A stretch of DNA of 64,000 bases from an uncultured Candidatus Saccharibacteria bacterium (GCA_964369115.1 CAYJED010000001.1:67732-131731), one strand, 5' to 3'. Positions 32,822 to 50,291 are shown, counted from the first letter of the stretch. The notes: a model not told the origin generated them from the sequence alone. Program-made: numbers and translations.

Positions 32822-32893
32822 TCCGCGATAGCTCAGCGGTAGAGCAGCGCGCTGTTAACGCGTTGGTCGTAGGTTCGATCCCTACTCGCGGAG
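32822..32893 (+). tRNA. tRNA-Asn (anticodon GTT)
   Basis: Cloverleaf read by hand: acceptor tccgcga/tcgcgga, D arm gctc-agcggta-gagc, anticodon stem gcgcg/cgcgt with loop ctGTTaa, T arm gtagg-ttcgatc-cctac, discriminator G. No encoded CCA. Confidence 0.85.
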
Positions 32894-32895
32894 CA
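32877..32895 (+). repeat. 19-nt tRNA 3'-end core (gatccctactcgcggagca), copy 1 of a direct repeat (att-like)
   Basis: Identical 19-mers recur at 46886-46904 and 48309-48327. Degenerate copies lie at 49547-49560 and about 46727-46745. Confidence 0.8.
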
Positions 32896-34570
32896 TAGTA
32901 GAAAAAACATCTCTTTTAAGGGATGTTTTTTCATTTAACCCTTGTGTATCAAAGTTTAATTTAGGTTCGAACTCTGGAAAATTCACTCTCATACCTTTTA
33001 CTCCATCAATGAGTGCTTGTGTTGCTTTTGACCAAGTAATACAAAGGTTTTCTTCGTCCCAAACTAGGTTCGAACCCAGTGCAAAAAGCACCTTCCTTTT
33101 GTGATCTAATGACCCATTTTTAAGCACTTCTGCAATTGATTCAGAGAAACCGACAATCTCGTTTAACTTAGACATCCAGTCAATATCATCTGCATTTTTC
33201 TTCTTTGAGACATGCTTGTAACGCTGTTCAATATCAGCAAGGTCGGCATTGTATTCGTCGTTAGTTATTTGTTGATTACGAAGCATTGCACGTGCGTGAA
33301 GTTTCTCTTCGTTGTACTTCTTTTTATCTTCTTCAATATTTATTTCTGCAGTAAGAGCATCCTGAAAATCACCATCTTTAAGTTGATATAAATTCGCCTT
33401 TGACCAATCAGCAAGATCAGAGGATATAGGAAAGTCAGAAATCGCAACAGAAATCAGTTCCTTAGTTATGTTTTTCTCAGTAATAGACTTATACGACTGA
33501 CGAGACTTCTTCTTACGATTGTCGTAGTGATATGAATACTCAAGAAGTTTAGGAGAAACCATTTGAGGTATATCAGTGCCACATGTAGGACAAATGGTAG
33601 ACAGAGTACAAGAAAACTTACGCTTACAGTCACATATGACCTGTAATTTAACGTCCTGAGCCAAAACATGTCCCAGTGGAGACCTTACGAGACCAGAATA
33701 CAGAGTCTTGTGATCCTGAACTTTAGGAAGCGAATGCTGACCAAGTAGACGTAGAATCTTCACATGTTCAGACTCGGTTATAATACGAGGTAGAGATTTG
33801 TGAAGTTCGTAACGCTCACCACCATAAAAGAAGAAACCTGCATAAATAGGATCCTTGAGAATCTCATAGATACGAGACCTCATGATAGGCATACCACCAC
33901 TTCTACCTCGTGCGACAGTAGTAAGGCCAAGTTCACCAACTGCGTAGTCGTACAACTTACCACCAGTAAAACCTCCTTCAAGAAACTTTCTTAATAAAAG
34001 ATTTATTTTATTCAAACGAACCTTATCAACCTTCCATTTACGATTACCTTTCTCTTCAGACTTATCATTAAGAAAACCAAGAGTAGCAACACCGTGAGGA
34101 AAACCCAAAGATGCTTTCTTAGTCTGACCTCTTTTAACATTCACAGAAAGATCACGAACGAATTGATTAGCAGAACCAAACTCAACCGACATCAAAATAG
34201 TGTTCTCACTACTGTGATAAATCTTGTTGGGAGTAATAATGCACTTAATGGTCCCACGCTGTAGCATGTCCATTATAACCCCACCATCAATCATGTTACG
34301 GGCCAAGCGATCAATTTTCCAACATACAATGCTGTCATATTTACCATTCTTAATATCTTTAATCATTTGAGTAAAAACAGGTCTCTTGTTGGACATCTTA
34401 CCTGACTTAGACTCTTTGAGGACATCAAGAATCTTAATACCAAACTGACTCGCTATCTTTTTATTTTCATCAACTTGAGAGTCGATAGATAACATTTGCC
34501 TTTCTTCTGACTCAGAAGACTTACGATTGTAATTCACTGCTTTCAACTCACCATAATTTATTTCATACAT
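32882..34570 (-). CDS. Large serine recombinase (integrase)
   Basis: N-terminal resolvase catalytic domain (AVNYNRKSSESEERQMLSIDSQ; WKIDRLARN), recombinase domain, Cys-rich zinc ribbon (CDCKRKFSC...CPTCG) and coiled coil. The last codons overlap the tRNA 3' end. Confidence 0.85.
   Translation of the reverse strand: MYEINYGELKAVNYNRKSSESEERQMLSIDSQVDENKKIASQFGIKILDVLKESKSGKMSNKRPVFTQMIKDIKNGKYDSIVCWKIDRLARNMIDGGVIMDMLQRGTIKCIITPNKIYHSSENTILMSVEFGSANQFVRDLSVNVKRGQTKKASLGFPHGVATLGFLNDKSEEKGNRKWKVDKVRLNKINLLLRKFLEGGFTGGKLYDYAVGELGLTTVARGRSGGMPIMRSRIYEILKDPIYAGFFFYGGERYELHKSLPRIITESEHVKILRLLGQHSLPKVQDHKTLYSGLVRSPLGHVLAQDVKLQVICDCKRKFSCTLSTICPTCGTDIPQMVSPKLLEYSYHYDNRKKKSRQSYKSITEKNITKELISVAISDFPISSDLADWSKANLYQLKDGDFQDALTAEINIEEDKKKYNEEKLHARAMLRNQQITNDEYNADLADIEQRYKHVSKKKNADDIDWMSKLNEIVGFSESIAEVLKNGSLDHKRKVLFALGSNLVWDEENLCITWSKATQALIDGVKGMRVNFPEFEPKLNFDTQGLNEKTSLKRDVFSTMLRE
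32902..32931 (+). terminator. Terminator hairpin downstream of the tRNA
   Basis: aaaaaacatc / gatgtttttt perfect 10-bp stem with a 10-nt loop. Confidence 0.45.
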
Positions 34571-35407
34571 ATATTTTTCATATTAATTAGTTTGTAAACA
34601 AAAATGAGGTAACGACGTTTAACTTTAAGTTGCTACACCAAGTCGTCATTACCTCGTTTTTATCGACAAAATTTGAGTCATTTCCGCCCCACTTGTTCCG
34701 TTCTCTGTCTTCTTACGGTTCTTATGGTTCGTATCTGCTCAATCTTGTTACTTGGTGTAGCATTTGTATTTGTCACTTAACTCTCGAATCTTTGCAAGTA
34801 TTAAGTGATTCCAATTGATAGGAAAGGAGCACAGCCCCCCTTACCCCCCAAGGAAACTTTTAGTAATCTAGGGGGAGATGTTGAAACTTGTATCCGTTTT
34901 CTCTCGGAGTTTCTTAGTATCATTCTTTGCTACACATGTAGCATTGTTACTCCGCTATTCGTTGATACTTTTCCATCGGTACGAATAACTTATTTAGAGG
35001 CGATTCCACGTTGATGAGGGATCCTCGCACTCCGCAATTTAACCAAAGGGCCTTACTCGAAGGGTGGCTTGCGGAATTAGCCCGACCAGTCCTTCTCGTG
35101 TGAATAGAGTCAATTTCTTGACTCTGGTTTGATTACCAAAATTGATAATAAAACCAGAATTAAGAAGCAAGTACTTTTACTTTTAAGTGTTCTGCTGTTA
35201 CCACTAGTAATGCGTTACCAATCTCTTGAACATCGTCGTCAGACAATGGATCGCAAAAATTACAACCAAAGGATTTATTCAATGCTGTTCTGAGATCTTG
35301 AATTGATTTGATTGATAACTTCATAATAAAAACACCATAGTGTTACTATGGTTATATCAACATATGAAAAATGCCTACAGTCAGTTATCTGTAGACAGTT
35401 AAGTGAC

Positions 35408-36148
35408 TCAAGAATCTTTCCTGTATTTCTTCTGTCTGATTATTTTATCTACCCGAGTGTAGTCCCAGTCAAGATTAAATCTCTTGTTTATTTTCCCAGC
35501 AATCGCTTTAGTAGAAAGTCCAATGTTATTTTTAATAAGATTGTAAATTGAAAGAAGGTCTTCTTTGGTTTTTCTTATTGTTAACATTTTACTTTTAGGG
35601 TCTCGTAACTTTATCTGCATTGGTTCAATTGTATCTTTGTATCTCTTATCCAAAATATCCTTAAGTTCAGTCAGAGAAGTGTAAGGATCAATAAGTATTG
35701 CGATAGGATAAGTTTTAGAATACTCGTTTGATAATGAGAAATTCTTTTTAGAGTCGTTATTTATATTGTAGATTCCGTAAGATTTACCAAAATTAAAAGA
35801 ATCATATCCACCAAAGACAACGTACTCAGAAAACAAAGTAAGCCAAGTGTCTGAGTCAAAACCAAACTGATTACATAGTTTGGCAATAACATCAAAGAAT
35901 TTTGTAGTATCCAATCTCTCAGGTATATCAAAATTAGTATGAGCAAAAACTTCGTCTGAATCTTTTGAATCAGTAGATGTTGGGTATTCTTCAATTCCTT
36001 TTTCTGGTATATCAAATTCCTTTCTGATCTTCGTAACTTCAGACTGAAACTCGTCTGTATACACAACGTGCTCAAAATACGTAGCCATTCGATTGTCGGC
36101 CTGCACATCACTTCTATATCTAAAGTATTTCTTCTTATCGTTTTTCAT
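35408..36148 (-). CDS. Hypothetical protein (about 246 aa) on the island
   Basis: ORF with start taken at MKNDKKKYF (36148). No recognisable family. Its start region overlaps a GTTGCTACACC motif copy. Confidence 0.45.
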   Translation of the reverse strand: MKNDKKKYFRYRSDVQADNRMATYFEHVVYTDEFQSEVTKIRKEFDIPEKGIEEYPTSTDSKDSDEVFAHTNFDIPERLDTTKFFDVIAKLCNQFGFDSDTWLTLFSEYVVFGGYDSFNFGKSYGIYNINNDSKKNFSLSNEYSKTYPIAILIDPYTSLTELKDILDKRYKDTIEPMQIKLRDPKSKMLTIRKTKEDLLSIYNLIKNNIGLSTKAIAGKINKRFNLDWDYTRVDKIIRQKKYRKDS

Positions 36149-36188
36149 GGTGTAGCAACCGAAATAAAGTAAACACATTATAACATTT

Positions 36189-36222
36189 TTGACACTAAAA
36201 AATTACTCGAAAATGATATAAT
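36189..36222 (+). promoter_or_regulatory. Putative promoter (TTGACA ... TGATATAAT) directly abutting ORF 36229
   Basis: TTGACA at 36189-36194 and an extended -10 TGATATAAT at 36214-36222. The spacer is longer than optimal. Would give a leaderless transcript. Confidence 0.3.
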
Positions 36223-36228
36223 TTATAG

Positions 36229-36504
36229 ATGGAATTTAGCAACAAACCAATTGATGTGCTGAAAGAGATAAGTCTAGAACCCCTTAAAGAAACAAAGGTT
36301 CCTTTGGTGCGAGGTTACCGAGGAAGATTTGTAACTGGTAACCAAGAAAGTGTTGGCAATAAAGGTGGTCGTCCACGCAAACTCACACGTGCTGAACTGA
36401 TTGAAAATCCTGAGAAGTTACAAAGAATTATAGAGAGATCCGAAAATGGTGACACTGACGCACTGATCATACTAATAAACCTTATGGAGGGAAAAATAAA
36501 ATAA
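36229..36504 (+). CDS. Small basic protein with AT-hook-like GRPRK motif (possible DNA-binding regulator or recombination directionality factor)
   Basis: 91 aa; NKGGRPRKLTRAELIENPEKLQRIIE resembles an AT-hook plus HTH. No SD. Its first 20 nt are duplicated at 36505-36525. Confidence 0.4.
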   Translation: MEFSNKPIDVLKEISLEPLKETKVPLVRGYRGRFVTGNQESVGNKGGRPRKLTRAELIENPEKLQRIIERSENGDTDALIILINLMEGKIK

Positions 36505-36904
36505 TCCAATTGATGTGCTGAAAGTAGAGACTGATATAACAGTAAGAAACTCGGTGAAAACAGATTCAAAAAAATTGAATAGTAATTTCTGTACAGAAAT
36601 CGAGACCGTATAAACACGGATAAAACTCGGTGAAATTAATAGTGGCTCTAATTGATATACAGAAAGTGAGACCATCTAAACTTGGAATAAACTTGGTAAA
36701 AAATTACAGTAACCCAATTGATATAGTGAAAGTGAGCCCAGTTATAACAGGAGAAAACTCGGTGAAATACTGAAAGTTTAGATTGAAATAACAAATTAAA
36801 ACTCGACAAAAACAAATTCATAAATATAGTAGCCAGAATTTCAGTACTGAAATTGACACCGTTAGAATACGGTGAAAACTCGGTGAAAATTACTTCTGTG
36901 ATCC
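36505..36904. repeat. Non-coding tandem array of about 5 structured repeat units (64-144 nt)
   Basis: The constant 14-mer AAACTCGGTGAAA occurs at 36548, 36624, 36757 and 36876, with variants at 36690 and 36799. Each unit has an [A/T-rich palindromic arm]-GAAAG-TGAGNCC head, e.g. perfect palindromes tttctgtacagaaa (36585-36598) and aatttcagtactgaaatt (36838-36855). Each unit also has a short hairpin with compensatory stem changes (ccgt/acgg, caccgt/acggtg, actg/cagt, cca/tgg). No ORF. Confidence 0.8.
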
Positions 36905-37168
36905 AAGTAGAATGTACTTAGCCAAGAATTTTAGGCCTCCGATAAGTACAAGGTACCCGAGGAGAGCCAGAAAAAATTCATAGTGAAAACCGTCTGTGAT
37001 CCAAATGTAAATACTGAAAATTAGTCCAACCCAAAATGGTATTCCAAGTATAAAATAGATAACCTTAAAGGATCTATAAAGCGGTGTATTTTTTGTATCT
37101 GTAGTCATAATGATGAAATACAGAGTACCTACGTAAAAACAAAATAGGCACCCCATAGAGGTGCTCAC
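36890..37168 (-). CDS. Possible small membrane protein (about 70-92 aa)
   Basis: Hydrophobic ORF with 2-3 predicted TM helices. No SD identified. Confidence 0.3.
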   Translation of the reverse strand: MSTSMGCLFCFYVGTLYFIIMTTDTKNTPLYRSFKVIYFILGIPFWVGLIFSIYIWITDGFHYEFFLALLGYLVLIGGLKFLAKYILLGSQK

Positions 37169-37286
37169 ATATCAATAACTTTCGTTACCAATCATGTTTC
37201 CTCATAGGATGCCTATGCTGTGCACGATTGGTAACGAAATAAGCACATTAAAATGCTGATTTTGAAAAACTTATTGATATGTGAGC
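37163..37286. repeat. Long nested inverted repeat (imperfect hairpin/cruciform of about 124 nt)
   Basis: Outer 16-bp perfect IR gctcacatatcaataa (37163-37178) / ttattgatatgtgagc (37271-37286). Inner 14/15 IR ctttcgttaccaatc (37179-37193) / gattggtaacgaaa (37226-37239). Central catagg / cctatg (37203-37217). A 30-nt asymmetric insert lies in the right arm. Confidence 0.8.
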
Positions 37287-37364
37287 AAGTACATAATACC
37301 ACAAAACATTGATATCTCATAGGGTATTAGACGTAAGTTGTTCACAAGTGCCTTAACTTGGTGC

Positions 37365-37393
37365 TTGACAAAGTTAAAGTAAAGGTATATACT
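37365..37393 (+). promoter_or_regulatory. Putative sigma70-type promoter upstream of the fic gene
   Basis: TTGACA (37365-37370), 17-nt spacer, TATACT (37388-37393). Confidence 0.45.
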
Positions 37394-37422
37394 TTAACTA
37401 TAAAAATAAATAAGTAAAAGAA

Positions 37423-38586
37423 ATGAACTTCAAATCAGGTACAAAATATAAGGCAGAAACACCAAGCGGACAGAAATATACCGCCTTTTTACCTGAACTT
37501 ATAAATAAAGAATTCACTTGGAAAGATCCGCAGATAGACCTACTACTTGAACAGGCCCGAGGTTGGATTGGTGAACTTAATGCCTATTCTAAATTAGTCC
37601 CTAACGTTGAATATTTTATTCAATCTCACGTAGCAAAAGAAGCCGAACAATCTAGTAGAATTGAGGGCACTAAAACTACTCTCGAAGAACTGTACCTAGA
37701 TATTGCAGACCTTACAGACAGTGAAAAAGTAAATGACCAAGAAGAAGTTAAGAACTACATTAAAGCACTCAATGAATCTGTAAAAGAATTAACTAGTGAA
37801 AGTGGCCTACCTTTGTGTACGAGACTTGTATGTGACACACATAAAATACTTCTATCGGGTGTTCGTGGGTATTCTCGCAATCCAGGTAAAATAAGAAAAA
37901 TACAAAATAAGATCGGAGGCGGACACGGCACTTTTGAAGATGCCGTGTTTATTCCACCGTCACCAGATAAAGTAGACGACCTGCTAAAGGATCTAGAAAA
38001 CTTTTGGAATAACAATGACTTACATATACCAAACCTTATAAAGACTGCATTGTCACACTACCAGTTTGAAACCATTCACCCATTCGAAGATGGTAACGGT
38101 CGTACAGGTCGCTTGATAATCATTCTTCAACTTATCTCATATAAGATGCTCGAGAAACCAACTCTCTACCTATCAGACTATTTCGAAAAGAATCGTCCCG
38201 CATACTACGATGCCCTATCAAGGGTACGTGAGTCACACGACATAGAGCACTGGATTAAGTTTTTCTTGATCGGAGTGGCCGACACTGCAAAGAAAGGTAA
38301 AGAAACACTAGAGAAGATAATCGACTTACGAATTAAGTACGAAACACTTATTAGTGGAGGTATCGGAGCAAAGAGACAAAAACTTGCACGAGAACTCATT
38401 GTGGCCCTCTTCGAGAAACCAGTGGTAACCGCAAAAGATGTTGAAAGCATATTAAATATTACTAAACCAACTGCCCACTCCCTCGTCGATGATCTAGAGC
38501 GAGTCGGAATACTAAAAGAAAAAACAGGGTTGTCTCGTAACAGAATATTCACCCTACACGAGTACTTAGCATTATTTAATAACTAA
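37423..38586 (+). CDS. Fic/DOC family protein (putative AMPylating toxin) with N-terminal inhibitory motif
   Basis: Canonical Fic motif HPFEDGNGRTGR and an upstream SxxxEG-type inhibitory helix motif (SSRIEGT). The C-terminal part is HTH-like. Confidence 0.85.
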   Translation: MNFKSGTKYKAETPSGQKYTAFLPELINKEFTWKDPQIDLLLEQARGWIGELNAYSKLVPNVEYFIQSHVAKEAEQSSRIEGTKTTLEELYLDIADLTDSEKVNDQEEVKNYIKALNESVKELTSESGLPLCTRLVCDTHKILLSGVRGYSRNPGKIRKIQNKIGGGHGTFEDAVFIPPSPDKVDDLLKDLENFWNNNDLHIPNLIKTALSHYQFETIHPFEDGNGRTGRLIIILQLISYKMLEKPTLYLSDYFEKNRPAYYDALSRVRESHDIEHWIKFFLIGVADTAKKGKETLEKIIDLRIKYETLISGGIGAKRQKLARELIVALFEKPVVTAKDVESILNITKPTAHSLVDDLERVGILKEKTGLSRNRIFTLHEYLALFNN

Positions 38587-38592
38587 AAACAT

Positions 38593-40575
38593 ATGGAAAA
38601 CTTCAATCAAAAAACTTCAATGATCTGGAACGTAGCCGACATACTACGTGGTGGATGGAAACAACACGAATACCAAGATGTAATCTTGCCACTTGTGGTG
38701 CTTAAGAGACTGGACTCTATTCTTACAGATACCAAACAAGCAGTACTCAACAAAAACGATGAGTATCAAGGAAAAATCAATGATTTAGACCCAATCCTAA
38801 AACGTACTTCAAAAGTAGAGTTCTACAACATATCAGCATATGACTTCAAACTACTTCTTAGTGATCCAAAGAATATTGCAAAAAACTTCAGACTCTACAT
38901 AACTGGATTCAGTAAGAATATTCAAGATATATTCGAGAAATTCAACTTCAATGTGCAACTAGAAAGACTGGAGGGTGGTGACATGTTGTTCTTGGTAATT
39001 CAAGAGTTAAACAAGATAGACCTACACCCATCAAAAGTAGATAACTATCAAATGGGACACATCTTCGAAGAACTCCTTCGTAAGTTCTCTGAAATGTCTA
39101 ACGAGACCGCTGGAGAGCACTACACACCAAGAGATGTAATCAATACAATGGTTGAGATACTCTTGTCTCCAGATGCAAAGGAACTAAAAAAGCCACATGT
39201 TATCAAAAAAATATACGATCCTGCTTGTGGTACAGGTGGAATGCTTACAACTGCAAAAGATTACATTATCGACAAAGTAAACAAAGAAGCAGATATATTC
39301 CTGTACGGTCAAGAACTAAACTCAGTCACATACGCTATAGCAAAATCAGACATCCTTATAAAGGGTGAAAATCCAGACTTGATACGTGGAGGAGAAAAGG
39401 ATCACTCACTTGCAAGTACGCTTTCCAACGATCAATTCTTTGGAGAGGTATTTGACTATGGAATTTCAAATCCTCCATACGGAGTAGACTGGAAGAAAGA
39501 TAAAGATGCAGTAGATCGTGAAGCATCACGTGGATACGCAGGCAGATTCGGAGCAGGTACGCCTCGTATATCAGATGGTCAGTTGCTATTCATGGAGCAT
39601 CTTGTCTCAAAAATGAAACCAGAAAGTGATGGAGGTTCTCGTATTGCAGTAGTTCATAATGGGTCACCTCTCTTCACTGGTGATGCAGGTAGCGGAGAAA
39701 GTGAAATACGTAGATGGATACTTGAGAAAGATTTACTAGAAACAATAGTGGCACTCCCTGATCAACTTTTCTATAACACAGGTATCAATACATACCTTTG
39801 GTTCGTATCAAATAGAAAATCAAAAGAAAGAAAAGGTAAAGTACAACTCATAGATGCACGTAACTTCTACAAGAAGATGCGTAAGAGTCTCGGCAATAAA
39901 CGCCACGAGATAGATACAGATTCTCAAAAGAAAATATTTGATCTATACAATTCATTTGAAGAAAATGAGCATTCAAAGATATTCAATACTACCGACTTTG
40001 CATACCGACAAATACAAATTGAAAGACCTCTAAAACTTTCATTTGATTTCAACGATGAAAAAATAAAAGAACTGCTAGTGCTATTTTCTACAGATACAGA
40101 TAAATCAGGTATCAAGTCGTTCATAGAATCCTTCAAGGGAGAAACTTATAACGACAGAAAGAAACTTGAGGATATTATAACCAAGCGTTCAAAAGAGTTC
40201 ATCACTGGAAAACTTGGAGCGGGAGTAATAAAGAAGTTTATTTTACTCTCTGGGACCAAAGATGAGAATGCAGAAACCTGTGTGGACAAAGATGGTAACC
40301 CTGAAGCCGATGGTGACTTACGTGATCACGAGAATGTGCCCTACGGCACCGACGTGAAGGAATACTTCGACAAAGAAGTAAAACCTTATATTAGTGATGC
40401 ATGGATCAATGAATCGGTCCGAGACCACAAGGATAATCAGGTGGGTGTAGTTGGCTACGAAATACCCTTCACAAGATACTTCTATAAGTATGAAGCACCG
40501 AGAAGTCTTGAAGCAATAGAAAAAGATATTGAAGAGGTCGAAAATGAACTTCTAACCTTGCTTAAGCAATTATAA
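38593..40575 (+). CDS. hsdM: Type I restriction-modification system methyltransferase subunit
   Basis: HsdM N-terminal domain, SAM-binding region and NPPYG catalytic motif (ISNPPYGVDW). 660 aa with a C-terminal extension. Confidence 0.9.
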   Translation: MENFNQKTSMIWNVADILRGGWKQHEYQDVILPLVVLKRLDSILTDTKQAVLNKNDEYQGKINDLDPILKRTSKVEFYNISAYDFKLLLSDPKNIAKNFRLYITGFSKNIQDIFEKFNFNVQLERLEGGDMLFLVIQELNKIDLHPSKVDNYQMGHIFEELLRKFSEMSNETAGEHYTPRDVINTMVEILLSPDAKELKKPHVIKKIYDPACGTGGMLTTAKDYIIDKVNKEADIFLYGQELNSVTYAIAKSDILIKGENPDLIRGGEKDHSLASTLSNDQFFGEVFDYGISNPPYGVDWKKDKDAVDREASRGYAGRFGAGTPRISDGQLLFMEHLVSKMKPESDGGSRIAVVHNGSPLFTGDAGSGESEIRRWILEKDLLETIVALPDQLFYNTGINTYLWFVSNRKSKERKGKVQLIDARNFYKKMRKSLGNKRHEIDTDSQKKIFDLYNSFEENEHSKIFNTTDFAYRQIQIERPLKLSFDFNDEKIKELLVLFSTDTDKSGIKSFIESFKGETYNDRKKLEDIITKRSKEFITGKLGAGVIKKFILLSGTKDENAETCVDKDGNPEADGDLRDHENVPYGTDVKEYFDKEVKPYISDAWINESVRDHKDNQVGVVGYEIPFTRYFYKYEAPRSLEAIEKDIEEVENELLTLLKQL

Positions 40576-40579
40576 TTAT

Positions 40580-41782: not shown

Positions 41783-41783
41783 T

Positions 41784-43070: not shown

Positions 43071-43074
43071 ATAT

Positions 43075-43707
43075 ATGGCAAAAATTGAGATAAACAAAAC
43101 ACACATAGACGCACTAAAGAAACAGAAAAGGACTGTGGGTCTTTTGCAATTTCAAAATAGAGACGATCAAAACTTTTCAAAATGGTATTCACTTACAGAA
43201 AACTTGATAATTAAATCTTTTGGACAAAAGTCTAATCAACTTGGGCAACTTACATCCCTATATCATAAAATGCCAAGAACCGAAGACTTAAAGTATGAAT
43301 TTGATAGAGGTAGATTGGATATAAAAGATTGTAAAGAAAAATTAAAAGACTTGCTTGAAAACTTAATAGCCGAACTGGAATTGGATCTTGCTTCTGAAAA
43401 TGAAGACACAAAAGATAAGCCAACCAAAAAAGGTACATCTATAAAGATCAAAAATAGTCAAACGCAAACGCAAACCATAAATATTACACTGACAATAGAT
43501 CAAATAATTAATAGAATTAAAGAAACAGAATCAGACCCACAAAGAGTCTCGGAAGCAGAAGTAAAATTAAAAGAATTAGATTCTGAATTAAAATCAAAAT
43601 CTCCAGTATGGTCGAAAGTAAAAGACGCTCTAATATGGTTACTGAATTTCGGAAGAGACACATTTTTACAGGTCTTACCCATTATCTTAGAAAGATACAA
43701 ACAGTAA
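43075..43707 (+). CDS. Hypothetical protein (210 aa) between hsdS and hsdR
   Basis: ORF with tight spacing to its neighbours (4-5 nt gaps). Predicted helical; no known motifs. Confidence 0.5.
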   Translation: MAKIEINKTHIDALKKQKRTVGLLQFQNRDDQNFSKWYSLTENLIIKSFGQKSNQLGQLTSLYHKMPRTEDLKYEFDRGRLDIKDCKEKLKDLLENLIAELELDLASENEDTKDKPTKKGTSIKIKNSQTQTQTINITLTIDQIINRIKETESDPQRVSEAEVKLKELDSELKSKSPVWSKVKDALIWLLNFGRDTFLQVLPIILERYKQ

Positions 43708-43708
43708 T

Positions 43709-46690
43709 ATGAAAACACTAACAAACACAAAAGAATCAGGATTCGAAGAGTTCATACAAAATGAACTTGAGAAGATGCATGGATACAAAATCCGCTCATC
43801 ACATCTCTATGACAAGAAACTCTGTATGGATACAGAACTTGTTATTGAGTTCATAGAAAAAACCCAACCTCAAGCATGGGAGAAACTTTCTGAACAGTAT
43901 GGAGAGAACGTAAAGGCAAAAGTTCTGCAGAGAATAGACGAGGAAGTAGACTCACGTGGGATACTCTCAGTATTTCGTGAGGGCATCACAGATAGAGGTG
44001 TGCGTTTCAAACTTGCATTCTTACAACCACAGAATGATTTGAATCCAGAACTAATGCAGGAATATGCTGGGAATATTTTGAGCGTGACTCGCCAAGTGAA
44101 GTACAGTGAGCAGAATGAGAACTCGCTCGACGTGGTCCTATTTATAAATGGATTACCAGTATTCACTCTCGAACTTAAGAATCAATTCACAGGTCAGAAT
44201 GTTATACACGCTATCCATCAATACAAAACAAGTCGAGACCAAAAGGAGAAACTTTTGTCGTTTAAGCGATGCATCACACACTTTGCAGTTGATACAGATC
44301 AAGTGTATATGACAACTCGTCTTACTGGACTCACTACGTACTTTTTACCTTTCAACAAAGGAGACAAAGGTTCATCTGGTAACCCGACAGCACCTGAGGG
44401 TAAATACAAAACTCATTACTTGTGGGAAGAGATTTTCTCAAAGGATATGGTGTTTGATTTGATTGGAAATTTCATACAAGATGTCACTGAAGAAAAAGTA
44501 GATAAGAATGGAAAGAAGCGAAAAGAAGAGAAACTTATCTTCCCTCGATATCATCAACTAGATACTGTGAACCGAATACTAACTCATGTAAAAGCAAATG
44601 GGACTGGTAATAACTACCTCATACAACACAGTGCAGGATCAGGGAAAAGTAATACTATCGCTTGGACCGCACACCGTTTGGCGGAATTACACGATCAAAG
44701 CAATAAACCGATTTTTGATGGGGTTATAGTGGTTACCGACCGAAGAGTGCTAGATAGCCAGTTGTCGGCCACTGTGGACAGTTTTAGCCAAGTTGGAGGG
44801 GTCGTAAAGCACGTAGAGAGTTCTGCTGACCTCAAAGGAGCACTTGAGGGTGGAGTTAAGATCATTACGAGTACTCTACAGAAATTCCCAGTTATCGTTA
44901 GTTCTATAGAAAAGACTGAGGGTAGAAAATTTGCTGTTATCGTTGATGAAGCACACTCGTCACAGTCAGGAGAAAGTTCAGCGGATTTGAGACAGGTGCT
45001 TACTCTTGATGATGCTGTAACGCAAGAAGAAAAAGAAGAGAAGTTATTTAAGACAGTCGAAGATCTTCTTAATGAAAGAATGAAATCAAGAAAGGTTACT
45101 TCACCGAACCTGAGTTTTTTTGCATTTACGGCTACACCAAAACAAAAGACAATTGAACTCTTTGGAACTCAAGATGTGGTTACAGGTAAATTCATCCCTT
45201 TTTCTCTTTATTCAATGAAACAAGCGATTGAAGAAAAGTTCATCTTAGATGTGCTTAAAAACTACACAACCTACGAAACATACTTCGGTCTCTTAAAGAA
45301 GATTGAAGATGACCCAGAGTTCAATAAGAAAAAGGCACAGAGACTACTAATTGGATATGTAGAAAGAAATGAACATGCGATCTTGAAAAAGGTAGCAATC
45401 ATGACTGAGCATTTCGAACAGAAGATCTCAAAACTAATTGGAGGTAAAGCCAAGGCAATGATAGTAACTAAATCACGTTTACATGCCGTGAGATATAAAC
45501 TTGCCTTCGATGCTTACTTAAAGGAAAAAGGTTATGAGCATAAATCCCTTGTTGCTTTCTCTGGTAGTGTTGTTGATCCTGATACAAAACTTGAATATAC
45601 AGAAACTCAAATGAATCATATTCCAGAAAGCCAAACTGCTGAAGAATTCAAGAAAGATGAGTACAAATTCTTAATTGTTGCAGAGAAGTTTCAGACTGGA
45701 TTTGATCAACCGTTACTATCTGCAATGTATGTAGATAAGAAATTAGGAGGCGTAAATGCTGTGCAGACTCTTTCTCGTTTGAACCGCACAACATACGGAA
45801 AAGAAGATACTTTTGTACTAGACTTCTTTAACAAGACAGACGATATCAAGGAAGCATTCCAACCGTACTATACTACTACCGTACTTTCTGAAGCGACAAA
45901 TCCTAACTTATTACATAACCTCGAAAGAGAAGTTCGTGGGTTCAAGTTGTTTACCGACTTTGAGTTGAATGGATTTGTGGAAGAACTCTTTGGAGGTGCA
46001 ACCCCAGACAAACTAAATCACATAATAGATGTGATAGTTGAAAGAGCATTATCCGAAAAAGATGCGGAAGAAATTGAAAGTTTCAAGTCAGTAATTTATG
46101 ACTACTTGAAGAAGTATTCATTTATCTCACAGATCGTAACCTTTGAGGACCCTCAACTAGAGAAGTTGTATATATTCCTAAAGTTCTTGATAAAGAAACT
46201 TCCAAGACGAGAAAACCCTCTGCCAGTAGAGGTCCTTGAGGCAATTGATATGGAAACATACAAGATAGATAAAAAAGGAGAAACTGATGTGATGCTTGAA
46301 AATAAAGATGGAGAACTAGACCCTATGACTGGTGGAGGTGGTAAAAAAACTGGAGGAGATGAAGAGGAAGATGCATTATCTAAGATAATTAAGGAGATAA
46401 ATGAACGATACGGAACAAACTTTAGCGATAATGACAAAGTTATACTTAATGACCTAAGTGCAAAACTACTAAAGAGTACAATTCTTCAAGGTTCAATACA
46501 AAACAACAGTAAGGATTCTGCGAAGTTGAAGTTCGATCAACTCTTCCAAGACGAACTAGTTGGGATGCTTGATAACCACTTTAACCTCTACCAGAAACTG
46601 GACCAAAGCCCAGAATTAAAGAAATTCGTACAGGAGAAAGTCTTTGAACATGTGGTAAAGAAGATGAACACCAATAAAACAAAGGATTAA
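43709..46690 (+). CDS. hsdR: Type I restriction enzyme R subunit
   Basis: N-terminal nuclease domain, SF2 helicase motifs (HSAGSGKSNT Walker A; VIVDEAHSSQ DEAH box), C-terminal domain. 993 aa. Confidence 0.9.
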   Translation: MKTLTNTKESGFEEFIQNELEKMHGYKIRSSHLYDKKLCMDTELVIEFIEKTQPQAWEKLSEQYGENVKAKVLQRIDEEVDSRGILSVFREGITDRGVRFKLAFLQPQNDLNPELMQEYAGNILSVTRQVKYSEQNENSLDVVLFINGLPVFTLELKNQFTGQNVIHAIHQYKTSRDQKEKLLSFKRCITHFAVDTDQVYMTTRLTGLTTYFLPFNKGDKGSSGNPTAPEGKYKTHYLWEEIFSKDMVFDLIGNFIQDVTEEKVDKNGKKRKEEKLIFPRYHQLDTVNRILTHVKANGTGNNYLIQHSAGSGKSNTIAWTAHRLAELHDQSNKPIFDGVIVVTDRRVLDSQLSATVDSFSQVGGVVKHVESSADLKGALEGGVKIITSTLQKFPVIVSSIEKTEGRKFAVIVDEAHSSQSGESSADLRQVLTLDDAVTQEEKEEKLFKTVEDLLNERMKSRKVTSPNLSFFAFTATPKQKTIELFGTQDVVTGKFIPFSLYSMKQAIEEKFILDVLKNYTTYETYFGLLKKIEDDPEFNKKKAQRLLIGYVERNEHAILKKVAIMTEHFEQKISKLIGGKAKAMIVTKSRLHAVRYKLAFDAYLKEKGYEHKSLVAFSGSVVDPDTKLEYTETQMNHIPESQTAEEFKKDEYKFLIVAEKFQTGFDQPLLSAMYVDKKLGGVNAVQTLSRLNRTTYGKEDTFVLDFFNKTDDIKEAFQPYYTTTVLSEATNPNLLHNLEREVRGFKLFTDFELNGFVEELFGGATPDKLNHIIDVIVERALSEKDAEEIESFKSVIYDYLKKYSFISQIVTFEDPQLEKLYIFLKFLIKKLPRRENPLPVEVLEAIDMETYKIDKKGETDVMLENKDGELDPMTGGGGKKTGGDEEEDALSKIIKEINERYGTNFSDNDKVILNDLSAKLLKSTILQGSIQNNSKDSAKLKFDQLFQDELVGMLDNHFNLYQKLDQSPELKKFVQEKVFEHVVKKMNTNKTKD

Positions 46691-46763
46691 AGACTATTTT
46701 CCTCTATCACAGCAATTCGCACATCGTCCCACACTCGGAGCAAAAAGTAAAATCCTCAGGTTT

Positions 46764-46808
46764 CATGCCTGAGGATTTTACTTTTTGTTTCAATCGAAGC
46801 AAGTGACC
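46764..46808 (+). terminator. Strong rho-independent terminator after hsdR
   Basis: aaagtaaaatcctcagg-tttcatg-cctgaggattttacttt perfect 17-bp stem followed by ttgtttc. Confidence 0.65.
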
Positions 46809-46904
46809 TGCGTCACTTGCGTGTAGGGTCGAATAGGGCTCGCGAATCTGCTTCGAGGAGTTTACGACGAGGCAGATTTGTGAGAGATCCCTACTCGCGG
46901 AGCA
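46809..46904 (+). repeat. Structured arm plus 19-nt tRNA-3' core, copy A (att-like junction)
   Basis: gcaagtgac-ctgc-gtcacttgc hairpin, then aatctgcttcg...cgaggcagatt hairpin, ending in gatccctactcgcggagca (46886-46904). Confidence 0.7.
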
Positions 46905-46908
46905 AAGG

Positions 46909-46937
46909 TTGACAATAACCAAATTATAATGTATAAT
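46909..46937 (+). promoter_or_regulatory. Consensus sigma70-type promoter
   Basis: TTGACA (46909-46914), 17 nt, TATAAT (46932-46937). Confidence 0.5.
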
Positions 46938-46967
46938 ATGGTTATTGTTCTATTTTAGGAGTTTCGT

Positions 46968-47180
46968 ATGTATATGGGAAAGTTTGTTTGCGGAAATCCT
47001 GTTTGCAAAAAAGTTTTTGCTGGCAGTGACGATGGATTCTCTGTGAGTGAGTGTCCGCACTGTGGTGCTGGCGCAAACTCTGTTCACCCTGAACCGGAAC
47101 GCACTGACCGAGGTATTGAGCAAGTTGACTACGATGCTCGTAAGGAGCTGTACCAACAGCAACGTTTCGCTGGTTGGTAA
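46968..47180 (+). CDS. Small zinc-ribbon protein (70 aa)
   Basis: AGGAG SD. CGNPVCKK ... CPHCG two CxxC pairs. Confidence 0.5.
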   Translation: MYMGKFVCGNPVCKKVFAGSDDGFSVSECPHCGAGANSVHPEPERTDRGIEQVDYDARKELYQQQRFAGW

Positions 47181-47183
47181 ATT

Positions 47184-47220
47184 ACCGCCCGAGCAAAAAA
47201 ACTGCTTCGGTGGTTTTTTT
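47184..47220 (+). terminator. Terminator hairpin (paralogous to 48664-48702)
   Basis: accgcccgagca-aaaaaac-tgcttcggtgg followed by ttttttt. Confidence 0.5.
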
Positions 47221-47500
47221 GCTTTTATACTCCACTTTCTTCAATAATCGCCTGTCGAACATCTTCCCAGGTTCGGAGCCAAGAGAGACGAGACGCCATG
47301 AAAATGGCGTTTTGTCCTTTTATACCAAGGTAATTAGTAGGTTCTAACCTTTTCATTATCTCCTTTTGCGCTTTTAATTCGTTTTCAATCAAAATAAATG
47401 GATGCGCCTTCTCAATTATGAGCTTTTTATCTTTTAAAGTTAGGTTCGAGCCAATTGTTGAAAATATCGTTCGCTTCTTTTTGAGGTCTCCTGTATTGAA

Positions 47501-48115
47501 ATGATGGAAAGCAAAGGCACAAAAATTAAAGGCCCTCTCTGTAGGGTTGTCTACGGTTCTCTTGCTATCATGGTCATTTCAGTTATTTACAAGATATTTT
47601 TTGATCCAAACTGGCAAGTTCTTTTCTCTGCATCTGTCGCATACGCAAGTTTATTTAATAGGACTATTACTCAACATCTCCCGAAACTCTTCTCTAAGAG
47701 TGATGGTAAAGTTGCCACGACTGAATATTTAATTGATAAAGTTGTACTAGAAAGTATAAATGTATGTAACGCAAATGGTTTATTCTTTAATCAGGCAGTA
47801 TTGGTGTCTGAAGATTCATCACAAATAATTACAATCCCGAACGAGAGAATAAACGATATAGACTCATATCTTAATGAGTTAAAATTAAGCGATTTTAAAC
47901 ATAACAACATTGCTATCGCTATGGCAGGCTCATATGATTGGAAACAATTCTTGTGGAGTGGTGTAAAGCATTACGAGGCATTAATAATTGAAGTCTACTT
48001 ATCTAAAGGAGTGAAAAAGTATAGTTTTTGCCAAACTATTGATAATGATTCGGGCTTATACAAGCCAAGTGAACGAGGGTTAATATATCAAGGTTCTGTA
48101 GCAATCAAAGGGTAA
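47501..48115 (+). CDS. Hypothetical protein (204 aa)
   Basis: ORF with an N-terminal hydrophobic segment. No family recognised. Weak SD. Confidence 0.4.
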   Translation: MMESKGTKIKGPLCRVVYGSLAIMVISVIYKIFFDPNWQVLFSASVAYASLFNRTITQHLPKLFSKSDGKVATTEYLIDKVVLESINVCNANGLFFNQAVLVSEDSSQIITIPNERINDIDSYLNELKLSDFKHNNIAIAMAGSYDWKQFLWSGVKHYEALIIEVYLSKGVKKYSFCQTIDNDSGLYKPSERGLIYQGSVAIKG

Positions 48116-48219
48116 GTGAAAGATTTGCTCCAATCAAAAGTTCTGAACCTGTGTACCGTTCGGAGCATTAATACAAAAAGCCACAAGTTCATTCTTGTGG
48201 CTTTTTGTATTAACTTTTC

Positions 48220-48327
48220 AACGAAGCAAGTGACCTACTTCACTTGCATGTAAGATCGAATACGGGGTCGAGGTTCTACTTCGAGCAAAGCGAGGTAGAA
48301 TCGTGACCGATCCCTACTCGCGGAGCA
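48220..48327 (+). repeat. Structured arm plus 19-nt tRNA-3' core, copy B
   Basis: gcaagtga-cctact-tcacttgc hairpin, ctacttcg...cgaggtag hairpin, ggggtcg...cgatccc pairing, ending in gatccctactcgcggagca (48309-48327). Confidence 0.7.
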
Positions 48328-48330
48328 CTA

Positions 48331-48359
48331 TTGACAAAAGCATTATATATTGTTATACT
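48331..48359 (+). promoter_or_regulatory. Consensus sigma70-type promoter (paralogue of 46909-46937)
   Basis: TTGACA (48331-48336), 17 nt, TATACT (48354-48359). The downstream 5'UTR is similar to the one at 46938-46967. Confidence 0.5.
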
Positions 48360-48395
48360 GCTTTTGTTCTTTCATCAGTATACAGGAGTTACAAA

Positions 48396-48665
48396 ATGTT
48401 TCGTTTCAGTTCGAAGGTCAAACCGCCTTACAACAACAGAAAAGAACATGCAAAATGGAAGAAAAAGTTCGCTTTCTTTCCGGTCGTTATCAGCAGAACA
48501 GGAACCACAGAAACTAAGGTCCTATTTTGCTTCTACGAGGAGCGTGTCTACTGCGACCCCATGGGTGCTTCTGTGTATGGTGGTGATACGGTAACCGAAC
48601 GTCGTCTGCCGGGTTCAACAGAAGTCTGTGAAGTTGATCGACATGATGGTGACCCATTGCTCTAA
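48396..48665 (+). CDS. Small hypothetical protein (about 89 aa)
   Basis: AGGAG SD 7 nt upstream of ATG 48396. Lys-rich N-terminus, C-terminal Cys residues. Confidence 0.45.
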   Translation: MFRFSSKVKPPYNNRKEHAKWKKKFAFFPVVISRTGTTETKVLFCFYEERVYCDPMGASVYGGDTVTERRLPGSTEVCEVDRHDGDPLL

Positions 48666-48702
48666 CCGCCAAGCAAGAAACTGCTTCGGCGGTTTCTTGT
48701 TT
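48664..48702 (+). terminator. Terminator hairpin (paralogous to 47184-47220)
   Basis: accgccaagca-agaaac-tgcttcggcgg followed by tttcttgtttt. Confidence 0.5.
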
Positions 48703-48810
48703 TACACTTCATCCCTCAAACTTTTCATATTCATCATCCCCACCCTCATACCCGAGTACTCCCTCATCAGTTCGGTAAAGAAGGTTTGTGGGGAGCACAT
48801 AAAATCTTAA

Positions 48811-48839
48811 GTCCACCATTTCGGTGGACTTTTGATTTT
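48811..48839 (+). terminator. Hairpin plus T-run
   Basis: gtccacc-atttc-ggtggac followed by ttttgatttt. Confidence 0.4.
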
Positions 48840-48897
48840 AGTGCTCAGTGAGAGTAAAGCCAACTGCTTGGCTTTTCTTTTTGATATACTTATATAA

Positions 48898-49429
48898 TGA
48901 ATACTTACGTGGCTCTACTCCGTGGAATAAATGTAGGAGGTAATAACAAAATTGAAATGACAAAACTCAAAGTCCTTTTTGAGTCACTCGGCTACACGAA
49001 TGTTGTTACTTACATCAATTCAGGCAACGTAATATTTGAGACAAGAAAAAAGATGTCAGTCGGCTGACAAGTGAAATTGAAAAAGGTATAAAAAAGAAAT
49101 TCAAGCTAGATATTCCAGTTGTACTACGTACACAACAAAGTATTGAGAAAGTGTGTAAGAACATCCCACCAGATTGGGTAAATGATAAAGATAATAAAAC
49201 TGATGTAATGTTTCTGTGTGATGAGTTTGCAAGTAAGAAAACTCTAAAAATAATTTCTACTAACCCAAAAATTGATTCGTTACTGTATGTTGATGGGGCT
49301 ATTGTTTGGCATCTAAAAAAGAAGGATTACGAAAAGAGTAAAATGAATGACATTATCGGTACAGAAGTATACAAAAATATGACTATACGAAACATCAATA
49401 CTGTTCGGAAACTTGCAACATTGATGTAA
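48898..49429 (+). pseudogene. DUF1697-family gene disrupted by a -1 frameshift in an A6 run
   Basis: N-terminal part MNTYVALLRGINVGGNNKIEMTKLKVLFESLGYTNVVTYINSGNVIFETRKK stops at TGA 49065-49067. The downstream frame (track ORF 49151..49429, open from about 49063) continues LTSEIEKGIKKKFKLDIPVVLRTQQSIEK... One extra A in aaaaaa (49046-49051) would fuse them. Confidence 0.7.
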
Positions 49430-49440
49430 AAGAAACTATC

Positions 49441-49560
49441 TCTTTTTCTGTACTCACCCAGTCCAAAGTTCTGAACTCGTCCACTAGAGGGATCGAATAC
49501 GGGGTCGAGATTATACTTCGAGCGAAGCGAGGTAGAATCATGACCCGACCCCTACTCGTA
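49441..49560 (+). repeat. Structured arm plus degenerate tRNA-3' core, copy C
   Basis: gggatcgaatacggggtcgag...cgaggtagaatcatgacccgacccctactcgta. ggggtcg/cgacccc pairing. The core is degenerate at 3 positions. Confidence 0.55.
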
Positions 49561-49976
49561 GAAATGAGCGATCATTGTCCTTACAAACCATTCAAGCTGA
49601 TGCTTGCCTCGATCTGTAAGCACCTCGGCGAGTTTGTCGATCTGTGGATGCAACAGAAGATTGTCATGCTCCAAAAAACTGTCGCAACGCATTGCCGTAG
49701 CAACCCGATGTGAAGAAACTCGCCAAGCATTGCAAGAATCTCAATCATGCCTTGGTCAGCGAAGAGGACATCATGATCCCCGATGAAAAGTAACCAATAC
49801 TGTGTGGTTAGATTTCACATTTAAATAAGACTTTTGGTCAAGATTTGTCTTGTGACATAAGAGGCTCGGTACATGATGTCATAAACCATAAGACCAAAGG
49901 AGTAGCTTTAGTCTATAGTCATCCAAATACCAGTGAACACAACCCGGGCCCCGTTTCGACGGGTGCTTTTTCTTTT

Positions 49977-50228: not shown

Positions 50229-50291
50229 ACTGTAAGTGTAACAGATTCTTGATATACTTTTTGTATTATTAGTTAATCATATAAATAACCT

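Follow-up and report, generated by a model that had tools for sequence, protein, structure and literature searches.

Large serine integrases of the phage type usually target protein genes or intergenic sites, where they insert one prophage, while the SCC/CcrAB elements of staphylococci (SCC, staphylococcal cassette chromosome) are inserted into the rlmH protein gene by two recombinases, or by CcrC, in much larger units than those described here. Integrons rely on a tyrosine recombinase that acts on folded single-stranded attC sites, and their cassettes are usually promoterless and expressed from Pc. The locus considered here lies in a 64-kb stretch of DNA from an uncultured Candidatus Saccharibacteria bacterium (CAYJED010000001.1:67732-131731; the whole stretch is referred to below as the window), in which an array region at 32822-49560 starts with a tRNA-Asn gene adjoined by the gene of a large serine recombinase. 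Together with SCC, its closest described counterparts are the ssrA islands of Dehalococcoides, whose serine recombinase DsiB belongs to the CcrB family (McMurdie et al. 2011, PMC3146451), and the tycheposons of Prochlorococcus, in which a large serine recombinase is present in 27 of 937 (Hackl et al., bioRxiv 10.1101/2020.12.28.424599).

In the locus, as in the ssrA islands, a large serine recombinase gene on the reverse strand neighbours the left junction, by the 3' end of a tRNA gene here and of the tRNA-like tmRNA gene there, and tandem units of variable cargo lie downstream; those of the ssrA islands that lack the integration module have been read as cis-mobilisable (PMC3146451). It differs in that the ssrA islands are inserted in the T-loop of ssrA with a 20-bp repeat at each boundary, whereas here the last bases of tRNA-Asn and a 7-bp core are concerned; in that they possess a six-gene integration module with a second, small recombinase, whereas a single recombinase is present here; and in that their units measure kilobases, whereas the units found here include promoter-bearing single-gene cassettes of 0.4-1 kb and structured modules (called M) that end in a copy of the tRNA 3' end. 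SCC elements are likewise inserted by serine recombinases at the 3' end of a conserved housekeeping gene and form tandem composites with recombinase-less pseudo-elements, but they have neither mini-cassettes made of a promoter and an open reading frame (ORF) nor structured extra attB modules. What the window has in common with both systems is a serine recombinase at the 3' end of a conserved single-copy gene and tandem accretion involving recombinase-less units, and what it lacks are two co-operating recombinases (CcrA+CcrB, DsiA+DsiB) and boundary repeats of ~15-20 bp. Tycheposons share the tRNA-anchored repeated integration, in which newer elements push older ones inward and remnants and partial tRNAs are left behind (bioRxiv 10.1101/2020.12.28.424599), but mostly use tyrosine recombinases, have partial tRNA flanks and replication modules, and have not been described as arrays of sub-kilobase cassettes with a conserved recombinase arm. 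With the phage integrases (phiC31, Bxb1, A118/LI, SPbeta SprA) the locus shares domain organisation, short att sites, a small core and the motif offset of attP; it differs from them in its target, a tRNA 3' end, in the 3' end of the recombinase gene, which forms the P' arm and overlaps the tRNA, and in the non-autonomous cassettes that appear to use the same sites. In the full-text literature, which was covered incompletely, no description was found of CPR (candidate phyla radiation) tRNA-Asn serine recombinases, of serine-recombinase cassette arrays or of M; one paper reports a genomic island with a type I restriction-modification (R-M) system in a Patescibacteria metagenome-assembled genome and does not address its integration.

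We consider it about 75% probable that the tRNA-Asn gene of the window is a serine-integrase hot spot, occupied by a defence island, mini-cassettes, a decayed element and M sites. A preliminary description of this DNA had proposed a tRNA-Asn-anchored island formed by serial site-specific insertion, and this is supported by our analysis; it had also taken the repeated copies of the tRNA 3' end as the footprints of the insertions, and this is contradicted by an empty site. The tRNA and the element next to it, E1, comprise the following.

32822..32894, + strand: tRNA-Asn (GTT), the chromosomal integration target (ARAGORN; Rfam RF00005, 70 bits)
32877..32895, + strand: B arm and core CGGAGCA (32889-32895), left junction (attL) of E1, an exact 19-mer
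32882..34570, - strand: large serine recombinase, 562 aa, convergent with the tRNA (PF00239, E 2.7e-18; PHROG 'integrase', 1e-38)
32896..46742, no strand assigned: element E1, 13,847 bp, recombinase module and defence cargo (missing from the empty site)
46715..46742, + strand: P arm of E1 and core, its true right junction (attR; identical arm in L097, join in L093)

E1 is one discrete insertion, ending at a degenerate copy of the tRNA end at 46742 and not at the exact 19-mer at 46886. This is seen in L093 (related loci and contigs are cited by such numbers), in which window position 32895 is joined to 46743 and everything in between is missing, so that E1 ends at 46742 and duplicates only CGGAGCA, the only identity common to its left and right junctions (7 bp). 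The tRNA-Asn of L093 is 100% identical to that of the window, the gene to its left encodes a ~45%-identical homologue of the 218-aa protein found at that place in the window, and directly behind the tRNA comes sequence that matches window 46724-46949 at 90% identity over 229 nt, i.e. the first M module (M_a) and the start of the next unit. The empty site that the preliminary description expected in relatives therefore exists, but in it the tRNA end meets 46743 and not the sequence after 49560. Further evidence comes from L097, whose recombinase is 88% identical and whose E1-like element ends in an identical right arm with no 19-mer after it; in both L097 and L098 the recombinase and an identical last 57 nt are combined with other cargo.

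The protein encoded next to the tRNA is, on the basis of its sequence, a large serine recombinase (serine integrase), as previously proposed. PF00239 covers residues 12-149, the YxRxSxxxQ motif (Y14, R16, S18, Q25) is invariant across 29 homologues, four invariant cysteines (C313, C315, C327, C330) lie at the position expected for the zinc ribbon, and the nearest solved structures are those of SPbeta SprA, which aligns to residues 9-250, and the TP901-1 integrase. Precomputed Pfam annotation gives PF07508 for many homologues and PF13408 for related ones, the window recombinase itself remaining below the Pfam threshold for PF07508. The locus thus has a catalytic domain, zinc-ribbon cysteines with a length above 400 aa and small-core att sites with a 5-bp motif offset, as serine integrases do. 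The last four codons and the stop codon of the recombinase gene lie inside the tRNA gene, and the C-terminus ..VFSTMLR, encoded by the complement of the tRNA end and the tRNA terminator, is kept across the family. The ORF reads through the tRNA terminator hairpin and stops in the tRNA T-stem (32882-32960), and in the reconstructed excised circle (46700-46742 joined) it would become 16 aa longer, ending in ..STMLRVWDDVRIAVIEENSL and a stop codon, which could couple expression or activity to the integration state. No candidate recombination directionality factor was identified.

More than 500 homologues were found at E <1e-10, the named ones from Parcubacteria, Paceibacterota or Nomurabacteria, and a scan of one genome per species yielded 592 stretches encoding relatives, 79 of which were sampled as family loci. 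The stop codon of the recombinase lies within or adjoins tRNA-Asn in 27 of the 79 and, in 11 more distant loci (29-36% identity), adjoins tRNA-Ser, Gln, Leu, Trp or His, the recombinase being always convergent with the tRNA in these 38. Three further loci (L019, L032, L084) have a tRNA-Asn that is split by a group-I-intron-like insert ~200 nt past the recombinase stop and was missed by ARAGORN, which fits the group I introns described in 2026 from tRNA-Asn genes of Patescibacteria (PMC13011429), and many of the remaining contigs end at the tRNA. Given this family-wide adjacency, a serine recombinase at a tRNA is the norm for the clade; it had been called unusual in the preliminary description, which holds for the literature, where the arrangement is uncommon, but not for this CPR family, and precedents exist. 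Within 10 kb, no second copy of the locus's own tRNA 3' end (19-mer with at most two mismatches, or exact 13-mer) was found in the 79 loci, which argues against long direct repeats as a feature of the family.

To the right of E1 the window contains, in order, M_a, E2a, E2b, M_b, E3a and M_c, the last disrupted by a segment with a DUF1697 gene. The units other than M are as follows.

46905..47280, + strand: cassette E2a, 376 bp, with promoter, ORF, terminator, and P arm with core CGGAGCC at 47255-47280 (promoter scan, ORF, arm family)
46909-46937, + strand: E2a promoter (12/12); its 70-aa CxxC..CxxC ORF is at 46968-47180
47281..48167, no strand assigned: E2b, remnant of a second serine-recombinase element (recombinase fragment, 204-aa ORF, P arm and core)
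47275-47544, - strand: ~270 nt from the 3' end of the E2b recombinase gene (matches recombinase C-termini, E 5e-8 to 4e-13)
47501-48115, + strand: 204-aa ORF of E2b; P arm and core at 48140-48167
48328..48797, + strand: cassette E3a, 470 bp, with promoter, ORF, terminator, and diverged P arm with core GGGAGCA at 48770-48797
48331-48359, + strand: E3a promoter (11/12, with TG); its 89-aa ORF is at 48396-48665
48858..49488, + strand: inserted segment (630 bp) with a disrupted DUF1697 gene (E 2.3e-24) and a P-arm-like end at 49464-49489

The preliminary description had divided the region into single elements of 14, 1.4 and 1.2 kb; the two small intervals are in fact composite, each holding a cassette, a decayed element or pseudogene, and M, while the statement that the distal part consists of small genes and pseudogenes is borne out. 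Near-consensus sigma-70 promoters with an extended -10 element lie 4-5 nt past both distal 19-mers, are the best two in 46.6-49.7 kb, and each lead into a ribosome-binding site, then a small ORF, then a terminator. A 53%-identical homologue of the E3a ORF lies behind a near-identical promoter in another context (L094); none of the cassette proteins of 70, 89, 204 and 171 aa gave a significant Pfam, PHROG or PADLOC family. E2b encodes the last ~90 recombinase residues and is 97% identical to the 3' end of the intact 568-aa recombinase gene of L100, and the E2a/E2b junction, in which an arm and CGGAGCC are followed by the recombinase 3' end, is of the attP type, as expected if one unit inserts at the left junction of another. 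The DUF1697 match is a 56-aa N-terminal piece, and its segment replaces the hairpin of M_c; L091 lacks the segment and has 24 nt of hairpin in its place. The right end of the segment is an arm joined at GA within the T-loop-like GGGATCGAAT of M, the join (49464-49500) reading ..CACTAGAGG, then GA, then TCGAATAC. It looks like a crossover at GA in the T-loop-like motif of M_c, which suggests the use of a secondary site.

Comparable arrays of small units were found in six relatives (L097, L032, L010, L012, L007, L045). In L097 the E1-like element, whose cargo is a type III-like methylase/helicase and an AAA_15/21 protein, is directly followed by a 1.08-kb and then a 0.43-kb cassette, both built as promoter, ORF, terminator and arm and neither accompanied by M. 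Four arms in L032 are spaced at 517, 1071 and 1022 bp, and spacings of 492, 783, 746 and 438 bp were measured in L010, L012, L007 and L045, respectively; one cassette gene is common to the arrays of L007 and L026 (68% aa identity). A promoter begins 0-6 nt past the core in the window and in L010, L012, L019, L028, L084, L090, L093 and L097, and core-adjacent promoters gave 26 matches, compared with 4 in shuffled sequence; several of the 26 come from duplicate assemblies of the window's own sites, and a few lack a P arm. Altogether, at least 10 different small units from eight genomes share one compact design of promoter, one or two ORFs, terminator and P arm within 0.37-1.1 kb.

The arms to the left of the core were compared for E1, E2a, E2b and E3a, for the cassettes of L090 and L097, and for six loci with an attP-type junction, in which the P arm abuts the 3' end of the recombinase gene and there is no tRNA (L017, L021, L023, L036, L040, L056). 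The element arms align without gaps (consensus ..TYGAACWTCSTCCCANNNNCGGAGCM), and the P arm, 26-28 nt long and non-palindromic, belongs to the family CTTCAATAAT..GTCGAACATC.TCCCA..TTCGGAGC. Counted from the core end, P arms have TCGA at -26..-23 and TCCC at -16..-13, whereas the tRNA arm has its TCGA motif at -21..-18 and TCCC at -17..-14. The distal motif of these left half-sites is therefore 5 bp further out in the element arm than in the tRNA, and the proximal motif has not moved. For the LI/A118 integrase, a distal motif placed ~5 bp outward is reportedly the hallmark that separates attP from attB, and the TCGA offset is the attP/attB geometry expected of serine integrases. The strict form of the arm, YCGAACWTCNTCCCA-N4-6-GGAGCM, was found 29 times in the orientation of the elements, once in the opposite orientation and never in shuffled sequence, being present in 21 of the 79 loci. 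Arms with a terminator-like hairpin behind them mark the distal end of an element, at 7.5 kb in L027, the complete Nomurabacteria chromosome CP060229, and at 8.5 kb in L014. The right half-sites are alike on the element and chromosome sides, A-rich and then a hairpin, and by eye no convincing mirror image of the left arms was seen in them.

From these observations the following mechanism may be proposed. The 3' end of tRNA-Asn would be the attachment site of a large Paceibacteria (CPR) serine-integrase family. The E1 recombinase would pair the attP of the circular element, made up of the P arm (..TTCGMACATCGTCCCA..), CGGAGCA and the 3' end of the recombinase gene, with a chromosomal attB made up of the T-loop, T-stem and acceptor strand of the tRNA, CGGAGCA and the tRNA terminator. 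The exchange would take place within the 7-bp core as a 2-bp stagger, probably at GA, to which both the GA join in M_c and a local dyad (CTACT-N10-AGTAG) at the left junction of E1 point; no more than a few terminal bases of the tRNA would be swapped, leaving the tRNA intact and only 7 bp duplicated. We infer that recombinase-less cassettes are presumably moved in trans by the resident recombinase, and that insertion may take place at any tRNA-type left arm, whether in the tRNA, at the left junction of an element already in place (which would give abutting arrays) or in the 19-mer of an M module. Composite blocks with a core on the left and an arm and core on the right, such as 46743-48797, could move as one with M inside them, and, the right half-sites being alike, any block from a core to an arm and core could act as a unit. 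The block 46743-48797 is precisely what L091 lacks.

The repeated tRNA ends belong to M. The 19-mer GATCCCTACTCGCGGAGCA occurs exactly at 32877, 46886 and 48309, always on the + strand and nowhere else in the window (chance expectation 0.01; 0/100 shuffles reach three), and covers the end of the T-loop, the 3' strands of the T-stem and acceptor stem, the discriminator G and two trailer bases; the repetition of the tRNA-Asn end at 46886 and 48309 had been correctly noted, and the tRNA is called by both ARAGORN and Rfam. Each of the two distal copies forms the final 19 nt of a ~160-nt unit, the units being homologous from end to end, and the exact 19-mers are pre-existing sites and not insertion scars. 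The two degenerate copies that had been reported are also present: that at 49547-49560, GACCCCTACTCGTA, is the 3' end of a third repeat unit that is intact in the 98%-identical relative L091, and that near 46727-46745, ..TCCCACACTCGGAGCA, has its last base at 46742 and is the most important of the copies. Short ends that resemble the tRNA 3' end (..CGGAGCA/C) are also present at 47274-47280, 48161-48167 and 48791-48797, and each M is directly preceded by a short ..CGGAGCA/C sequence resembling a degenerate tRNA 3' end. The composition of the window gave no GC or skew signal marking an island.

46743..46904, + strand: module M_a with exact 19-mer at 46886-46904, an attB-type site occupied by E2a (alignments, covariation, copy in L093)
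48168..48327, + strand: module M_b with exact 19-mer at 48309-48327, occupied by E3a (homologous to the L089 module; covariance model 121 bits)
48798..48862, + strand: 5' part of M_c (palindromic terminator), severed from the remainder (colinear with the intact M_c of L091, 90%)
49490..49565, + strand: 3' part of M_c with degenerate 19-mer at 49547-49565, right border of the array (with its flank 98% identical to L091; covariance model 65 bits)

M consists, in order, of a terminator hairpin, a 9-bp hairpin, a long imperfect palindrome and the 19-mer, the outer stem of the palindrome pairing with the first 14 nt of the 19-mer. Seven copies (those of the window, including the split M_c, and L089-L093) share a common fold in which 93% of the cells are paired and 11 of 41 pairs are changed on both sides, which was matched in 0/500 shuffles, slid controls pairing 38-51%; the inner stems are variable and covarying, while the outer stem is invariant because it is paired with the 19-mer. 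An M without cargo exists in L089, a syntenic and diverged locus found through homologues of the 218-aa protein left of the tRNA (52% identity), where the identical tRNA-Asn is directly followed by an M_b-like module: a terminator nearly identical to window 48168-48213, then a hairpin, the palindrome and a slightly degenerate 19-mer. When the left half at 46904 and the right half at 48167 are put together they give GATCCCTACTCGCGGAGCA/TTAATACAAAAAGCC, exactly the tRNA-terminator junction of L089. The same tRNA-Asn sequence is also present in the relatives L086 and L093. A pattern search for M gave four matches in JGI metagenomes, which became four more loci, and none in IMG/VR viral contigs, and nhmmer together with a covariance model recovered M from 97 loci (1.38 Mb) only in the window and L089-L093.

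M_a of the window and L093 are 90% identical in nucleotides next to a protein that is ~45% identical in amino acids; an M-like module with the Asn-type 19-mer GATCCCTACTCGCGGATCA stands behind tRNA-Lys(CTT) in L092 (107-346); and copy number differs between close strains, with one M in L091 and three in the window. Taken together, these comparisons imply that M spreads horizontally, and M modules may supply extra attB-type landing sites, cassettes being joined at M 19-mers twice in the window and also in L090 and L093. M is not needed for arrays, which exist without it in L097, L032 and others. Compared with the tRNA body as a possible decayed tRNA-Asn copy, the 5' part of M aligns no better than shuffled sequence (p ~0.03-0.3), apart from GTAGGKTCGA. 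The tRNA-Lys terminator of L092 is itself a long palindrome that includes the acceptor end of its tRNA.

The occupant of the site changes between strains. Among same-species contigs, identified by left flanks that are 98-99% identical, the tRNA-Asn is followed by E1 in the window, by a diverged E1-like element with broken genes in L099, and by a full element of the E2b type in L100 and L102; in L100, whose left flank matches the window at 98.9% identity for 12.9 kb, the intact 568-aa recombinase gene abuts the tRNA. In L091, with a right flank 98% identical, tRNA-Asn and an intact M_c are separated by one 11.8-kb element, whose serine recombinase (31% identical) is of a third kind. Elements have thus been replaced at tRNA-Asn. 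That the newest element stands nearest the tRNA, as had been claimed, does not follow when several attB-type sites are available, although it is plausible for E1, which is absent from L093. On the other side of the tRNA, an extra 1.14 kb that the window lacks separates the 218-aa gene from tRNA-Asn in the same-species contigs L099-L103 (at window 32620-32630) and contains a minus-strand ORF of 355 aa. The Logan contigs L002, L003, L005 and L096 (ERR4405439/40) break at 32847/32849 in the tRNA and at 48788-48816 at the right junction of E3a; breaks of this kind (32847/32849, 46867, 48788) were considered as signs of population heterogeneity and not used, k-mer sharing of the tRNA and repeats explaining them equally well.

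Four other explanations have to be weighed. If each 19-mer were a displaced tRNA end (attR), the elements would be 32896-46904, 46905-48327 and 48328-49560, with crossover in the 19-mer after the manner of classical tRNA islands; three exact direct 19-mers, far above chance and perfectly kept while the ~100 nt upstream of them are only ~80% alike, speak for such a scheme. It is nevertheless very improbable, because L093, without E1, keeps 46743-46904 directly behind the tRNA, cargo is missing from both sides of the L089 module, the same P arm closes the E1-like element of L097 with no 19-mer behind it, ~35 related loci have no second tRNA-end copy within 10 kb, and the TCGA spacing of the 19-mer is of the attB and not the attP type. 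Alternatively, the mobile unit could extend from 19-mer to 19-mer and include M as a recombination site like the attC of integrons. The unequal conservation of M_a and its neighbouring protein, indicating horizontal movement or strong selection, the hairpin and palindrome maintained by compensatory changes, the Asn-type M behind a tRNA-Lys and the variable number of M in close strains would all fit this. Yet the cassettes of L097, L032, L010, L012, L007 and L045 abut through P arm and core without M, cassette right ends bear the same P arm as the recombinase elements, M exists without a cassette (L089), serine recombinases use short duplex sites and need no folded arm, and M can ride passively in composite units such as 46743-48797, and we regard this explanation as improbable.

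The small units may also be seen as deletion remnants in an array that changes by homologous recombination or slippage. E2b demonstrably is such a remnant, the DUF1697 gene is disrupted, and in L090 the terminator and TTTCAATCA are duplicated on either side of the M core, as tandem duplication would give; random deletion would not, however, yield at least 10 units of one compact design in eight genomes, nor different cassettes at the same site in the window and L093, and as a general account it is rather unlikely. Lastly, M could primarily be a transcribed tRNA-like structured RNA or a transcription insulator, its 19-mer being kept for RNA function. Several conserved pairs are G-U on the + strand only, which hints at a role as single strand or RNA, the folding energy z-scores on that strand are -5.2 and -3.5, and M stands between a terminator and the next promoter. 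On the other hand, Rfam (at gathering thresholds and at E up to 10) finds only the tRNA, M giving hairpin-driven chance matches and no sub-threshold tRNA; M follows a terminator and has no promoter before it; and its 19-mers stand exactly where cassettes join in the window (twice), L090 and L093. As the primary role of M this is doubtful, though it has some chance of being correct, and an RNA role is compatible with that of a landing pad.

Several observations weigh against a serine-integrase hot spot as described here. The empty-site contigs are short, metagenomic and diverged (flanking proteins ~45-52% identical) and do not represent isogenic strains, and no excised circle or circular contig was found, with terminal overlap in 0 of 21 whole-contig loci. 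Because the right half-sites are alike, there is no evident source of directionality. Abutting arrays need attL-like targets, whereas attL is not known to be targeted by canonical serine integrases. The crossover dinucleotide is placed solely by the 7-bp shared core and the local dyad, and the P arm of E3a is diverged and may no longer function. M, whose role is the weakest part of the model, is confined to six sequences of one lineage cluster and was found in 0 of the 79 loci, which come from GTDB.

A broader comparison, with integrons, suggests itself. Common to both are a resident recombinase by a fixed site, co-oriented and mostly single-gene cassettes with conserved ends and a content that varies between strains; co-oriented cassettes beside a recombinase are found in the window (E2a, E3a) and in six relatives. 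The differences lie in the serine enzyme, the 26-28-nt half-site of duplex type, the promoter and terminator of each cassette and the tRNA as platform. No IntI-type or other tyrosine recombinase was found in 32.8-49.6 kb, the cassettes end in a non-palindromic arm, and the palindromic M is missing from most arrays; the resemblance is functional only, the attI/IntI and attC features being absent. Tentatively, and with somewhat less than an even chance of being right, the locus may be regarded as a Paceibacteria serine-recombinase counterpart of the integron, in which, at the tRNA-Asn end and at mobile landing pads ending in a copy of its 19-mer, a large serine recombinase would capture, stack and release self-expressed single-gene cassettes of 0.4-1 kb as well as entire defence islands. 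If cassettes are indeed moved in trans, this would be cassette capture built on a serine and not a tyrosine recombinase.

Few ways of exchanging genes are recognised in CPR bacteria, whose genomes are tiny, and one widespread integrase family of the serine type that targets tRNA-Asn would give defence systems and small accessory genes a main way into these organisms, the cargo across strains including R-M, SoFic, Pycsar-like and AAA_15/21 systems. For annotation, since the true far junction is only 7 bp and copies of the tRNA end can pre-exist, long tRNA-fragment repeats cannot delimit such islands. Classical (Islander-type) tRNA islands have a tyrosine integrase, restore the split tRNA and bear a displaced tRNA fragment of tens of nt at the far end; here the only recombinase is of the serine type, E1 has just 7 bp in common with the tRNA at its distal end, and the 19-mers belong to M modules that occur in the absence of E1. 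The natural attP/attB pairs with a defined 26-28-nt arm are also possible orthogonal integrase tools.

The cargo of E1 agrees with the preliminary description, in which the first interval was said to hold the serine recombinase, a Fic gene and a full type I R-M system, as both Pfam and PADLOC confirm.

36508..36888, no strand assigned: five copies of a ~52-nt unit at 66-76-nt spacing, iteron-like (repeat family; TRF period 66)
37423..38586, + strand: SoFic-type Fic protein (Pfam Fic_N and Fic; PADLOC SoFic, 1.9e-114)
38593..46690, + strand: type I R-M operon with HsdM, DUF2130, HsdS, a 210-aa ORF and HsdR (Pfam; PADLOC)

PADLOC matches on the operon were MTase_I (1.7e-258), Specificity_I (2.3e-70) and REase_I (6.6e-43). 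The E1 proteins of 256, 91 and 210 aa have no significant Pfam, PHROG or PADLOC family, the 210-aa ORF giving a weak PDC-S35 match. The iteron-like repeats lie between the 91-aa ORF and the SoFic gene, and the adjacent 36902-37227 is 71-74% conserved in the E1-like elements of L097 and L098. Other cargo accompanies related recombinases in L098 (JGI 3300078828), L097 and L100, comprising a Pycsar-like cyclase with PycTM, an N6_N4 methylase with a ResIII helicase, and AAA_15/21, and in L086, with Prim-Pol/AAA_25. This variety of defence cargo indicates that the integration module is a general vehicle for defence genes in the clade.

By exact match the window, whose ultra-small source bacterium is regarded here as CPR/Paceibacteria, belongs to a metagenome-assembled genome and is also represented in Logan assemblies of ERR4405439-41. 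Its housekeeping neighbours include ProRS, RseP, RRF, MreB, Def and Fmt. Genes for OmdA and Band_7 and four minus-strand ORFs (49561-53400) separate the array of the window from an ABC-type ATPase gene at 53424-54212; in L090 (1039-1674) the cassette array abuts an ABC-type ATPase gene whose product is ~59% identical to that of the window. Judging from this arrangement, the variable region may extend to the right of 49560.

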